A stretch of 37,758 nt of DNA from an uncultured Methanosarcinales archaeon (GTDB lineage: Archaea; Nanobdellota; Nanobdellia; Woesearchaeales; BS150m-G63): the NCBI GenBank assembly GCA_964630685.1, contig CAZVVW010000010.1, forward strand, positions 1 to 37,758, given 5' to 3'. Below are positions 6,001 through 9,000 of the stretch, one piece after another (position 1 is the first letter of the stretch; each line of letters starts with the position of its first letter). The position numbers are program-made.

Positions 6001-9000
6001 AACAGAAACATTGAAAGATGTTGCTCTAAAAGCAAATGTTTTAGAAGATGGTAAAAGTGACTTCAAACGTGGTTTAGAAATAGGATTGATTGTGTTAGTT
6101 ATCTTGTTAGTTATCTTAGGATTAATCGTTGGCTTTAATAAATTAAGGGGCGATGATGAGTCAGAAGACACAGGAGACGACACAGAAACTTATTACTAAA
6201 TTTTTTATTTTTTCTTTTTTTACTTTTATTTTTTAAATATCTTTGGGGACTAGAATGTTAAAATTAAATCTTGTTTCATTGTTTATTCTAATTATATTGG
6301 TATCTAGTGTATGTGCTGTTGATTTTAGCGTTGGTTCCGAGACAAGTGCTTTTGAATTATGTTCTTGTGGAGTTGTAAGTGATTCTTTTGTTATTTATAA
6401 TTTAGGTAGCGAGATTGCTAGTTTTATGGTTTATGCTGAAGGAAGTGGTGCTAGTTTTGTGAGTTTTACTGAAAATGTTTTTAATCTAGGTGTTGGAGAA
6501 TATAAAGAGTTAAATCCTTTTGTGGGAGTTCCTTGCGGGGTTATTGGAAATTATAATCTTAATTATATTATTGAAAGTGGTGGATTGAGAAAAGAATTGG
6601 GTAAGGAAGTAGCAGTTAAAGAGTGTGAAATTCTTAAAATGGAATTGGTGAGGGAAGGAAGTACTTGTAGTGGTGCTGAAGCGATTTATGAATTTGAATT
6701 GATTAATTTAAATGGATATAGTGAAAATTTTTCTTTGGAGAATGAATTGGTGTTGGATTATAATGAAAATCCTGTTTTATTGGGGCCAGGAGAGAGCAAA
6801 AGATTATTTGTTACTTTAAGTGTTCCTGATGAAGCTGGAGAATATGAATTTGATTTTGAAATAACAGGGGGAAATAGTGGTGGTAAATTTAGAAAAGAAT
6901 TTTCTTTAGATAGTGAAAATTGTTATTCTGTAGGTGTTAGTGGACCTGAAAAAGTGTGTGTTGGAGGAGTGCATAATATAGAAGTTGTTAATGATGGGAA
7001 AGCGTTTGAGGTTGTTAACATCTCCGGCGATATTTCTAATAAGTTGGTGAGTCTTGCTTCTGGACAAACTGAGGTGTTGATTTTTAATGCTGATGTTAAA
7101 GGGGTGTTTGAAACATATGTTAATCTTATAGATACTGAAATTAATGTTGATTATGTTTTGGAAGTAGTTTCCAATCAAGAGTGTTATTTATTGGAGTCTT
7201 CTCTTGAAGATATCTTAATTGGGCTTGAAGAAAGAGCGGTTCCTATTGATTTTAGGAATAATGGCTTAAAAAGAGGTACATACTCATTAAGCACAAATCT
7301 TGATTGGGTTGTTATTACTCCATCTGTTTTGGAATTAAATGTAGGGGAAGAAGAGAAAGTTCATTTATTTGTAAGTCCAAAAGAAGAAGGAATTTTTGAG
7401 TTGAATGTTAGTGCTCAATTTGAAAATAGTTCTTTGAGTTATGTTGAGTCTGTTGAATTAAAAGTTAGAGAGTCAAAGATTGAAAACTTTTTGGGGAAAT
7501 ATGGTGGCGCGATTGTTGTGATTTTGCTTTTGTTGATTTTGTTTGGGACTATATTTAATTCATTTGCTAAAGCTGTTGCGGGTGTTGGTACTAAAAAGAA
7601 AACTAAAAAGAGAATTAAGTTATGGATTAGTTTGCTGATTCTTTTAGTGGTTGTATTTGCGTTGGTGTTTTATTTTTATTGGGGATTTTTGTTTAATGGA
7701 TGTAAATGGCTTTTGGGGTTGGTGTTGAGTAAATGGCAATATATTATAAGTGCTGTTGCTGTGGTGCTTGCTGTTTTAATTCTGATTGTGTTGTTGGTTG
7801 TTTTGATTAGGAAGAAAAAGAACAAAAAGAAAATTAGTAAAAAATCTAAATAAACACAACATTTTTAAATTCTTAGAGATATTTTTGTGGTTAAGGGGAC
7901 ATAGTATAACTTGGCTAGAATGGCTGGCTCCAGTTTTGGAGCGATGAGTCACAGAAAACCGTGGCAATGATGAAAGCTTTGGTCTGTTGAGGCGGGTTGC
8001 TTCAAGGAAGAGACCAGCAGATCTGGGTTCGAATCCCAGTGTCCCCATTTTTTTATACTTTTTTACATAAATTCTTTTTATTTGAAGTAATTAATTAAGG
8101 AATGTAGAAAGGGATTAAATCAACTTTGTTGATTTATATCACTTCTCGTAGCCTATCAGCCGAAACTGTAGGTTCCAAATCCCAGTGTCCCCATTTTTAT
8201 TATTTTTTTATCGTTTTTAGAATTCTATTAAATCATTAACTTGCGTTTTAGTTTTGTTTATTGTTCCTTGTGGAAGCTCTATTACATATTGTGCTGGTTT
8301 TTTTGGTGTGATTATTTGGAACGGTTTTAGATTATGTTTTAGCTGAATTATTTTTTTGTTTTTGTTTAGCCAGAGAAGATCAATAGGAAAGAATACAAAG
8401 AACATGTGGAGTGAGATGATTTTTTCTTTTTTCCATGCGAATATTAAAGTTTTAGGTTTTGTATGAAACATCAATCCAATAGTTTTTGAGAGAATGGTTT
8501 TACAGAGCTTTGGTTTTTTGGATAGAATTGTTTTTTTGGTTTTATTTATTAACATAAAATATTATTTATGATAAGATTATAAAAAATTTTGTATTTTTTG
8601 AGTTTTCAAAAAAAAAACATTTATATAGAGGTAGTGATTATTTTAAAGTTGATTACGCACTTTTATCGATAAAAGGGGGCGAGGTGGCATTAAATGAAAA
8701 AAAAGGTAGCTTTAATTATTTTATTTCTCTTATGTGCATTAGTATTTTTTAAAGGTGCTAGTGCTGTTAATTGTTGGGATTATGACAATAATGAATCTGG
8801 TTGTATAGCGGAAGCTGGATGTAACTGGGATACTTGGGGTCAAAACTGTCATCCGGTTGGATGTTGGGACTTCCAAGAGTCTGGTGCATGTACTGGGAAT
8901 GCCACTGCCCTAAACATGTCCTGTACTTGGCAAACCCAAACTTCTTTTGGAGAAGGAGATGATGGATGGTGTGAAGATTCTACTGCCTGTTGGAATAATA

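Follow-up and report, generated by a model that had tools for sequence, protein, structure and literature searches.

A probable minimal box C/D-type methylation guide in the tRNA-Trp intron of a woesearchaeal genome

Canonical archaeal box C/D guides form duplexes of about 10-12 bp with their targets. In half-mer box C/D RNAs, known from crystal structures and from assembly in vitro, one kink-turn and one guide are enough for binding of L7Ae, Nop5 and fibrillarin. Within the Euryarchaeota, the intron of pre-tRNA-Trp has been described as a box C/D guide in Haloferax volcanii and Pyrococcus (Clouet d'Orval 2001, Singh 2004). The 66-nt intron that Nanoarchaeum equitans carries in its elongator tRNA-Met (eMet) is reported as an abundant and stable RNA that has a box C (one mismatch) and a box D, and was proposed to be a C/D sRNA (Randau 2012, Genome Biol 13:R63, PMC3491384). 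Stand-alone guides are described from Pyrococcus, where sR47 addresses C34 of tRNA-Leu(CAA) and sR49 specifies Cm34 of eMet; C34 of tRNA-Trp, eMet and tRNA-Leu(CAA) are therefore all published euryarchaeal box C/D targets, of the Trp intron, sR49 and sR47, respectively. The eMet guide was called 'always exonic' in the 18 cases then known (Grosjean 2008). As these reports describe them, the tRNA-Trp introns of Euryarchaeota and the tRNA-Met intron of Nanoarchaeum (2012) make the kind of guide considered here an already known one. Four of its aspects were not found in print, namely a layout with a single kink-turn, a tRNA-Leu case, a spread through DPANN archaea and a loss together with fibrillarin.

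The window, the whole 37,758-nucleotide stretch of DNA that was analysed, contains a tRNA-Trp(CCA) gene at 7895-8047 (Rfam tRNA 42.7 bits). This gene was missed by ARAGORN in its default run and was called as Trp(cca) with a 79-nt intron once introns were allowed. The gene and all of its features described below lie on the plus strand. A promoter-like box A, TTTAAA, can be read from the sequence at 7864-7869, 26-31 nt 5' of the first tRNA base; for nanoarchaeal tRNA starts, a TTTAAA box A has been reported 26 nt upstream (Randau 2012, PMC3491384). The 5' exon (positions 1-37, 7895-7933) carries the anticodon CCA at 7930-7932, with C34 at 7930 and G37 at 7933. The intron occupies 7934-8012 at the canonical 37/38 site, and the 3' exon (positions 38-73, 8013-8047) begins with A38 at 8013 and is followed by a T run from 8048. 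Two further introns, on other contigs of the genome, are built alike, in the eMet gene (C13:18449-18573, minus strand; 50-nt intron; Rfam tRNA 56.2 bits) and in the tRNA-Leu(CAA) gene (C3:78700-78833, plus strand; 48-nt intron; 37.3 bits), the latter seen only under laxer filters. The sequences and the Rfam/ARAGORN parse thus bear out the preliminary description of three C34 tRNA genes with similar 37/38 introns.

In all three introns, 5' antisense, xUGA, a hairpin and (U/C)GAUGA follow one another in that order. The antisense stretch comprises 5-7 nt complementary to tRNA positions 31/32-36/37 and is separated from the NNGA box by one spacer base. As had been claimed, it opens each intron, and in all three C34 faces the fifth base ahead of the box. 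The first antisense arm of tRNA-Trp, UUGGAGC (7936-7942), pairs with positions 37-31, and G7939, opposite C34, is the fifth base before the D-type box AUGA (7944-7947), the non-bulged strand of the kink-turn. The capped C stem follows as an 18-nt hairpin (7948-7965) with 5 bp adjoining the boxes, and 7966-7973 then holds the bulge AAU, GA and UGA. Within this last stretch, AUGAUGA (7967-7973) is a perfect match to the box C consensus. Each intron can be laid out as NNGA, a hairpin with a capped stem, a 3-nt bulge (G/A/U-A-U) and GA. Because the stem directly follows NNGA and directly precedes the 3-nt bulge and GA, the hairpin is a K-turn with a capped stem and not the K-loop first proposed. 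At the level of sequence, it has the canonical stem, 3-nt bulge and G.A/A.G pairs of a kink-turn, and is a predicted L7Ae site. The AUGA and AUGAUGA elements in the window, with their tandem G.A pairs, correspond to a box C/D pair, and the antisense lies directly upstream of the D-type box with the target opposite the fifth base. An alternative assignment of GCGAUGA (7941-7947) as box C was rejected, since relatives have CUGA, GUGA, UUGA or AAGA at 7944-7947, which keep a D-type box and break a C box. The duplexes are as short as described before: at 5-7 bp, with pairing limited to positions 31-36/37, they fall below the canonical 10-12 bp.

We infer that the tRNA-Trp intron probably is a minimal box C/D-type methylation guide acting on its own tRNA, with the introns of eMet and tRNA-Leu(CAA) built in the same way. 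Its single kink-turn, composed of the NNGA box, capped stem, 3-nt bulge and GA, would be bound by L7Ae, and Nop5-fibrillarin would dock on this complex. The 5-7 nt antisense upstream of the kink-turn would pair with positions 31-36/37, and Cm34 would arise by methylation of the ribose at C34, which faces the fifth base ahead of the box. In tRNA-Trp, the second arm together with UUGA may add Cm39. As an alternative to action in cis, the excised and probably circular intron could act on another molecule. Protein binding, methylation and the cis or trans mode are the inferred parts of the guide reading. Genes for all three proteins are encoded in the same genome: fibrillarin at C2:2402-3046, Nop5 at C2:3232-3855 and L7Ae at C2:51779-52057.

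One close counterpart is the euryarchaeal tRNA-Trp guide as published. Both are 37/38 introns of tRNA-Trp that carry antisense arms against C34 and position 39, both have competing guide and splicing folds, and both depend on L7Ae, Nop5 and fibrillarin, a dependence that is predicted here from the encoded genes. The published euryarchaeal guides have C/D and C'/D' pairs, whereas here one clear kink-turn is found, whose stem is loop-capped and not built from the RNA ends. Moreover, the C34 arm stands at the very 5' end of the intron, and the duplexes span just 5-7 bp. A second C'/D' motif of the bipartite layout was found in neither the eMet nor the Leu intron, and the Trp UUGA has only a degenerate possible partner. 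The described N. equitans RNA is similar in phylum, host tRNA, intronic position and the presence of boxes C and D; it is known from one organism, whereas the present module occurs in introns of mostly 42-55 nt among relatives and has a defined N+5 target in its host tRNA, and the likeness is one of description. sR47 and sR49 share the identical target nucleotides and tRNAs, but are reported as separate genes with a full bipartite layout. Half-mers are laboratory constructs that act in trans through long duplexes; the layout seen here is natural, conserved and joined to its substrate. Rfam C/D families (E up to 10) gave sub-threshold hits only, the best being snoU54 (16.1 bits, cut-off 35), with sR44 reaching 10.4 bits.

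A regular expression combining anticodon loop, antisense, box, hairpin space and NAUGA matched exactly three times in the 936-kb genome, in these introns, compared with 0-2 matches in each of ten block shuffles. Among the approximately 17 introns of tRNA genes called by ARAGORN, no others carry the module. It is absent from the other C34 tRNAs of the genome, namely initiator Met (39-nt intron), Thr(CGU) (19-nt intron), Arg(CCU), Ser(CGA) and Glu(CUC). The kink-turn-hairpin pattern by itself is not enriched genome-wide (45 matches versus 40-58 in shuffles); the significance of the hairpin comes only from its place and register.

The register and the layout of the kink-turn are maintained among relatives. 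Exon BLAST against 60 relatives, together with later loci, yielded 52 genes for tRNA-Trp, eMet and tRNA-Leu(CAA), in 48 of which the kink-turn geometry could be parsed. Of the 229 cells that match offsets 2-6 before the box with positions 31-35, 220 are paired, compared with 40-109 of 229 in registers shifted by -3 to +3 (40/184 at shift +3), and C34 has offset 5 as its partner in 44 of 45 genes. At offset 1, pairing with position 30 is seen in just 6 of 48 genes, and an unpaired base there is usual in C/D guides. The D-type box reads AUGA in 31 of the 48 genes, GUGA in 5, UUGA in 4, AAGA and CUGA in 3 each, and AGGA and GCGA in one each, such that NNGA is conserved and the first two bases are free. 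The bulges are GAU (29), AAU (11), AGU (4), UAU (3) and CGU (1), always followed by GA, with A and U as second and third bases in nearly all genes. The register of the kink-turn is settled by variants in which GA occurs once (AAUGA, AGUGA, UAUGA). Contrary to what had been stated, the distance of the module from the 5' splice site is not constant: the stretch before the box mostly measures 8-15 nt, with 40 nt in one tRNA-Trp gene. As related genomes are not independent, all counts given here overstate the support.

A wider set of 108 distinct eMet introns was collected from public genomes with a pattern that required the UGAG antisense core, an NNGA box and NAUGA, so that position 31 and the stem count as its only free tests. 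The guide base opposite position 31 is paired in 108/108 introns (U:A 62, C:G 45, A:U 1), while shuffles averaged 80 and never exceeded 88. Pair 2 of the kink-turn stem is formed in 107/108 (G:C 50, C:G 36, A:U 21), the shuffles here averaging 49.6 and reaching 64 at most. Many of the public MAGs with the eMet module are titled 'uncultured Methanosarcinales'. These titles were rejected as evidence for Euryarchaeota, and the label was treated as unreliable, because the genes are near-identical to Woesearchaeota-titled ones (L160 vs L133).

We considered whether the module is a functionless, decaying relic, left by a full C/D RNA once carried in the intron or by a mobile C/D element that had inserted into introns. 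One kink-turn is left, the last three C-box positions are free in relatives, the second box is inconsistent across tRNA-Trp introns, the antisense is weakened in one related genome (G230), and mobile C/D sRNAs have been discussed in print (Randau 2012, PMC3491384). Against this stand the retention of the module in several DPANN phyla and dozens of families, where stem and guide have changed in a compensatory manner, the fit of each tRNA's guide to its own anticodon loop, and the outright loss of the intron where the machinery is lost. Such a relic therefore seems very improbable to us.

The predicted folds bear on a second possibility, in which the 5' arm and the kink-turn aid folding or splicing of the pre-tRNA and no methylation takes place, with L7Ae as an RNA chaperone or the arm as a strand of the outer helix of the bulge-helix-bulge. 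The minimum-energy fold of the tRNA-Trp anticodon arm plus intron (ViennaRNA, -36.2 kcal/mol) is bulge-helix-bulge-like with an outer helix of 11-12 bp. In it, the first arm and half of the box are buried in a 12-bp helix with the intron tail; in this splicing-competent fold, the part that mimics the anticodon loop (7996-8007) is joined to the first arm and to the beginning of the box. This pairing, which supplies the outer helix of the splicing motif, favours the folding role, as do the eMet tails, which often contain ACUCA, a copy of the target, and the fact that L7Ae is a general binder of kink-turns. However, the canonical splicing motif pairs the 3' part of an intron with positions 32-35 and needs no 5' arm, and control introns of this genome splice without such a module. 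In addition, the arm covaries with exon position 31, and splicing has no use for the constant N+5 distance between arm and box. We regard a pure folding or splicing aid as unlikely. The guide duplex and the bulge-helix-bulge fold share bases and are predicted to be mutually exclusive; if the guide acts in cis, methylation would thus have to precede splicing.

Action as a guide in trans only is a different matter. Here, the excised circular intron would be the active RNP on another pre-tRNA or on the mature tRNA, and the Trp intron would represent a circularly permuted full C/D RNA. In the linear tRNA-Trp intron, no C-type box lies upstream of the first guide. The haloarchaeal Trp intron has the order C, U39 guide, D', C', C34 guide, D, of which the present order would presumably be a circular permutation. 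Across the circular junction, AGGAAGA stands 11-12 nt before the D-type box in five tRNA-Trp introns, and AUGAGGA stands 10 nt before the box in the tRNA-Leu intron of this genome. The duplex is confined to exon bases 31-37, so that the spliced tRNA could also serve as substrate. Circular tRNA-Trp introns are reported as widespread, action in trans is reported for H. volcanii, and a permuted circular C/D sRNA for N. equitans (Randau 2012, PMC3491384). Yet the junction motifs are missing from most eMet and short tRNA-Trp introns, and they also form the central helix of the splicing motif, which explains their conservation without a role as boxes. Furthermore, the minimum-energy folds of the eMet and Leu arms plus introns of this genome contain a cis guide:target hairpin together with the kink-turn hairpin, and so favour cis. 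Exclusive action in trans is conceivable, and we hold it to be a tentative reading.

The second guide of the tRNA-Trp intron is less uniform than the first. Its arm, UGGUCU (7980-7985), pairs with A41, C40, C39, A38 and the last two intron bases, with G7982 opposite C39 (8014). The D'-like box UUGA (7987-7990) lies 13 nt after the C-type box, a spacing of 12-14 nt in this clade, and the fifth base before it pairs with C39. In archaeal box C/D guides, about 12 nt part a C-type box from the D-type box that follows it. Among relatives, changes in the arm are matched by changes in the last intron bases and the stem (UGGUCU/AG|ACCA, UGGUAU/AU|ACCA, CGGUCU/AG|ACCG, GGUGU/AC|ACC). The box is in register with C39 in 5 of 10 long-form tRNA-Trp introns (L003, L004, L005, L008, L010) and shifted or missing in the other five. 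The covariation proposed earlier was hence recovered, while the box stands in the right register only in close relatives of this gene. UUGA has no clear partner box, the nearest candidate AGGAAGA (8005-8011) matching RUGAUGA at 5/7 positions. A second canonical kink-turn in the tail finds no support, since a stem can be placed between UUGA and neither of the GA sites that come later; a degenerate motif may exist there.

Within one related family of 61 genomes (f43), the presence of the module follows that of fibrillarin and Nop5. Nop5 is found in 22 of the genomes and fibrillarin in 21 of these; in the remaining one, G455, Nop5 is a fragment at the end of a contig. A clear module occurs in 11 of the 22 and in none of the 39 without fibrillarin-Nop5, one of which is doubtful (G177). 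Counted by genus, it is present in 7/12 with the machinery versus 0/17 without (1 doubtful). The other 11 machinery-bearing genomes gave no match to the pattern, among them G230, which keeps the kink-turn with the weakened antisense. tRNA-Trp is intronless in all three fibrillarin-free genomes in which the gene was found (G081, G426, G079), while other tRNA introns are retained in genomes without fibrillarin; the tRNA-Leu(CAA) intron of one of these, G100, has no kink-turn. CAU tRNAs are intronless there as well, but elongator Met and Ile2 could not be told apart among them, and they were left uncounted. The loss of the module with fibrillarin and Nop5 while other introns stay again opposes a mere aid to folding or splicing; L7Ae, also a ribosomal protein, presumably persists where the two are lost. 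Outside the order of the present genome, a class-wide sample gave a clear tRNA-Trp module in 5/132 genomes, though most have fibrillarin. Two genomes have a module and no fibrillarin match: G475, which is 72% complete, and G067, which is in 130 contigs and belongs to a family with fibrillarin in 16/18 genomes. In relatives, the module is thus found almost only alongside fibrillarin and Nop5. Register, antisense covariation, protein genes and this co-distribution together support the earlier proposal that the introns are candidate C/D-type guides for C34, as does the match of the three tRNAs to those with a published euryarchaeal C34 target.

Stand-alone C/D sRNAs were sought in the same genome with insensitive scans. 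A strict regular expression for the full layout gave 0 matches, as in shuffles; pairs of C and D boxes closed by 4 bp or more of terminal stem numbered 6 versus 2-5 in shuffles. Pairs with inner boxes numbered 2 versus 0-1, both in seemingly repetitive stretches, and no stand-alone sRNA was found. It is possible, if doubtful, that the three modules are the sole recognisable guides of fibrillarin-Nop5 in these reduced archaea, each joined to its substrate and working through a duplex of 5-7 bp. In that case, locking the wobble C of the tRNAs for UGG, AUG and UUG would be the main reason to retain the machinery, and the introns would persist as carriers of the guide, the tRNA-Trp intron disappearing once the machinery is gone. 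Accurate guided methylation would then need no bipartite C/D RNA, and the competition between guide pairing and splicing would form a methylate-then-splice switch. The guide reading offers a concrete, testable reason why some long archaeal tRNA introns are kept and why they would be lost with fibrillarin and Nop5. A natural minimal guide, with one kink-turn, a short antisense and its substrate in one molecule, would also probe how little RNA the C/D enzyme needs.

In eukaryotes, wobble-C methylation relies on Trm7 and snoRNAs. The protein enzyme TrmL is reported for it in bacteria, and stand-alone or intron-borne C/D guides in archaea; with the same three targets, Trp, Met and Leu(CAA), the introns described here would add another route. 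Long module-bearing introns also hide tRNA genes from default finders. A 2026 preprint gives tRNA-Trp as undetected in 30/123 complete Woesearchaeales, a figure confirmed as quoted earlier, and weighs gene loss against split genes; searches that allow for introns would probably bring many of these genes to light. The stretch itself is contained in DNA runs from marine/seawater metagenomes, and the only two RNA runs contain 0.04 of the sampled words.

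The tRNA-Trp(CCA) gene lies at window positions 7895-8047 on the forward strand (42.7 bits, Rfam tRNA) and is recovered by ARAGORN only with introns allowed, the default run missing it. On reading the sequence, the anticodon occupies 7930-7932 (+) and G37 is 7933 (+), followed by a 79-nt intron at position 37/38 (7934-8012, +) and by A38 at 8013 (+). A TTTAAA box at 7864-7869, 26-31 nt upstream of the gene, and a T run directly 3' of it (8048-8054) fit the nanoarchaeal tRNA promoter and terminator reported in Randau 2012. The window makes up contig C10 in a genome of 936 kb and 35 contigs (96.6% complete). 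The elongator tRNA-Met (eMet; C13:18449-18573, -; 50-nt intron, 56.2 bits) and tRNA-Leu(CAA) (C3:78700-78833, +; 48-nt intron, 37.3 bits, visible only under laxer filters) genes of the preliminary description are present there as it had them.

The introns of all three genes share a single plan. Two to four bases precede a stretch antisense to the anticodon loop plus the final base of the stem, after which come one unpaired base, an NNGA box, a hairpin, three bases and GA. The tRNA-Trp antisense, UUGGAGC (first arm, 7936-7942, +), pairs with positions 37-31; its counterparts are UGAGU in eMet and UUGAGU in tRNA-Leu(CAA). The boxes read AUGA in tRNA-Trp (D-type box, 7944-7947, +), AUGA in eMet and GUGA in tRNA-Leu. 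In tRNA-Trp, the stem-loop spans 7948-7965 (+), the bulge AAU 7966-7968 (+) and the GA 7969-7970 (+), with a perfect box C, AUGAUGA, at 7967-7973 (+); the bulge is GAU in the other two.

A kink-turn combines a regular stem with a 3-nt bulge and tandem G·A pairs. As read from sequence, the intron module is a match to this layout, the GA of the box being predicted to form the G·A pairs with the GA that follows the bulge. The hairpin stem abuts NNGA on its 5' side and the three-base bulge on its 3' side, and some relatives read AAUGA, AGUGA or UAUGA for GAUGA and hold only a single GA, which fixes the kink-turn register. The earlier reading as a K-loop is thus better replaced by a kink-turn with a loop-capped stem.

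By whole-gene BLAST, the three genes were retrieved from 60 relatives, in most cases a single genome per family of the same order, and parsed under a fixed rule. The parse gave a kink-turn in 48 of 52 genuine Trp, eMet or Leu(CAA) genes, with three or four misparses left among the 48 that weigh against the result. The four genes without it comprise an intronless eMet (G030), an intronless Leu (G039), a box-less 18-nt eMet intron (G054) and an odd Leu intron (L070). Pairing of tRNA positions 31-35 with the bases at offsets 2-6 ahead of the box is seen in 220/229 cells, compared to 40-109 of 229 in registers shifted by -3 to +3 (shift +3: 40/184). The fifth base before the box lies opposite C34 in 44/45 genes, upholding the antisense arm proposed earlier, and the box-adjacent base is mostly unpaired (paired in 6/48 only). 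All of these counts, as well as those for covariation below, are inflated by kinship of the genomes.

A scan for the eMet form, using one genome per species, gave at least 120 loci, of which 108 distinct sequences were kept after removal of six plain chance matches. The pattern imposed the UGAG core, NNGA and NAUGA, leaving only the free positions informative. At these, position 31 is paired with its facing guide base in 108/108 introns (U:A 62, C:G 45, A:U 1; shuffles: mean 80, maximum 88). Stem pair 2 is formed in 107/108 (G:C 50, C:G 36, A:U 21; shuffles: mean 49.6, maximum 64), and stem pair 3 in 98/108. Ten introns have A in place of G as the first base of the stem, and in eight of them the partner is U; the conserved GAG thus belongs to the stem, and its reading as a second antisense to C32-C34 is ruled out by this partner change. 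The module is genuine and under selection; its most likely role is that of a minimal, self-targeting guide of the box C/D type for 2'-O-methylation of C34 (Cm34).

The joint pattern matches just the three genes in their own genome, and 0-2 matches were seen in ten shuffles. The kink-turn hairpin alone is not enriched there (45 matches vs 40-58 in shuffles). Among about 17 introns in ARAGORN-found tRNA genes, only these three carry the module. It is absent from the control introns of initiator tRNA-Met (39 nt), Thr(CGU), Thr(UGU), Gln, Ser(UGA), Ala(GGC) and the two-intron Lys(UUU), and from the other C34 tRNAs Arg(CCU), Ser(CGA), Glu(CUC), Thr(CGU) and initiator Met.

The tRNA-Trp intron further contains a second arm, UGGUCU (7980-7985), pairing with A41, C40, C39, A38 and the last two intron bases. 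A UUGA box follows one base past it (7987-7990), and the fifth base before UUGA lies opposite C39 (8014). The covariation described earlier between this arm and its target is borne out in relatives (UGGUAU/AU|ACCA, CGGUCU/AG|ACCG, GGUGU/AC|ACC). The UUGA-type box is in register in only 5/10 long-form introns (L003, L004, L005, L008, L010); of the other five, two carry UCAGA, which displaces the site by one position, another contains an insertion and two are box-less. About half of the tRNA-Trp introns are of a short form (42-47 nt) devoid of a second arm. The candidate partner of UUGA, AGGAAGA (8005-8011), matches RUGAUGA at 5/7 positions, would sit 11 nt ahead of the first box across the circular junction, and its bases double as the central helix of the splicing motif. 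Methylation of C39 (Cm39) in this gene is plausible, not established. The tRNA-Leu introns of this genome and of relatives (L066-L073) end in AUGAGGA, whose UGAG pairs with CUCA to make up the central helix of the splicing motif. This AUGAGGA also matches box C at 6/7 positions, lying 10 nt ahead of the D-type box across the circular junction.

For the anticodon arm and intron of tRNA-Trp, the predicted minimum-energy fold (-36.2 kcal/mol) is a bulge-helix-bulge-like splicing fold. In this prediction, the tail at 7996-8007, which mimics the anticodon loop, is base-paired to the first arm plus the first two bases of the box. The predicted folds of eMet (-9.7) and Leu (-19.3) instead combine the kink-turn hairpin with a hairpin formed in cis by the arm and positions 31-35. 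The predicted folds are mutually exclusive; guide pairing and splicing would therefore compete.

Intron-borne C/D guides are a known kind, and the present module is a variant of that kind, not a separate one. The euryarchaeal tRNA-Trp intron is a textbook box C/D guide for Cm34 and Um/Cm39, has been reported in at least 29 archaea with trans action demonstrated in vitro, and is still the sole intron-embedded guide listed in a 2024 review. Grosjean 2008 described the eMet guide as 'always exonic'. In Nanoarchaeum equitans, by contrast, the 66-nt eMet intron was found to yield a stable and abundant RNA that contains box C and box D and was proposed as a C/D sRNA (Randau 2012, PMC3491384). C34 of tRNA-Leu(CAA) is guided in P. 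abyssi by sR47, a separate RNA, whereas here the module lies within the tRNA-Leu intron. A literature search covering few subscription papers found no publication that deals with a guide in a tRNA-Leu intron, the single-kink-turn layout or its DPANN spread, or module co-loss with fibrillarin.

The combined pattern matches in 312/401 genomes of a phylum sample that includes six unpublished genomes, on which alone no claim depends. Genomes of the own order mostly hold 2-4 matches each vs 0-1 for a reversed-pattern control. Among 80 titled matches listed, real eMet modules occur in Woesearchaeota-, Nanoarchaeota- or Nanobdellota-titled records, and likewise in Nanohaloarchaea (L135, L140, L174, L183, L200), Aenigmatarchaeota (L155, L159) and Micrarchaeota (L166, L167). 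Many loci of L127-L199 come from public MAGs titled 'uncultured Methanosarcinales archaeon', and their eMet genes are near-identical to Woesearchaeota-titled ones. We therefore distrust this label, and the likeness suggests that such titles are wrong.

Fibrillarin (C2:2402-3046), the adjoining Nop5 (C2:3232-3855) and L7Ae (C2:51779-52057) are all encoded in the own genome, as previously stated. In the window, a weak Ribosomal_L7Ae family match (30126-30308, -; 26.9 bits, barely above cut-off) lies within a 391-aa open frame, whose product may be an L7Ae-like-domain protein rather than L7Ae proper. Across relatives, fibrillarin is missing in seven and present in three of ten hand-picked, nearly complete genomes without a pattern match; nine of ten hand-picked genomes with matches have it, and the tenth, G203, holds only chance-like matches. 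Family f43 (61 genomes) was selected because many members lack the pattern. It has full-length fibrillarin in 21 genomes, and Nop5 in the same 21 plus a contig-end fragment in G455. Modules judged clear by eye from matched strings occur in 11/22 genomes with this machinery (tRNA-Trp in 10, eMet in G431) and in 0/39 without, G177 being doubtful; by genus, the figures are 7/12 vs 0/17 (one doubtful). Leaving out the unpublished G278, G422, G451 and G455, included in these tallies, gives 8/18 vs 0/39. In fibrillarin-less genomes, tRNA-Trp is intronless in 3/3 where found (G081, G426, G079), the Leu(CAA) intron of G100 shows no kink-turn, and tRNA-Arg(UCG) introns of 38-45 nt persist. Those of G100, G426 and G226 (L248, L251, L252) are conserved and of a different build.

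In a class-wide sample of 151 genomes, 98 have fibrillarin. A clear tRNA-Trp module was seen in 19 (14/19 of the own order, 5/132 of other orders), and 17 of these 19 have fibrillarin; the two without it are G475, a 72% complete genome, and G067, which is in 130 contigs and whose family has fibrillarin in 16/18 genomes. Against a simple link stand the half of f43 machinery genomes without a pattern match, G230 with its kink-turn kept and arm weakened, and most fibrillarin-bearing families of other orders, which lack this tRNA-Trp form. Fibrillarin and Nop5 are both missing across whole lineages of the class in nearly complete genomes (f43 members G079, G100, G426, G081, G226 and others; families f109, f111 and f133), implying that RNA-guided 2'-O-methylation was lost altogether there.

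Several isoacceptors of the own genome escape default tRNA finders. The initiator tRNA-Met (C3:70471-70586, +) has A1:U72, three G-C pairs in the anticodon stem and C at position 33; its intron shows no kink-turn. A tRNA-Lys(UUU) at C2:67889-68019 (-), misnamed Leu(caa) by ARAGORN, apparently contains two introns, in the D loop and near 37/38. Two tRNA genes with 48-50 nt insertions (C9:15295-15416, -; C2:68454-68578, -) probably have introns at non-canonical positions.
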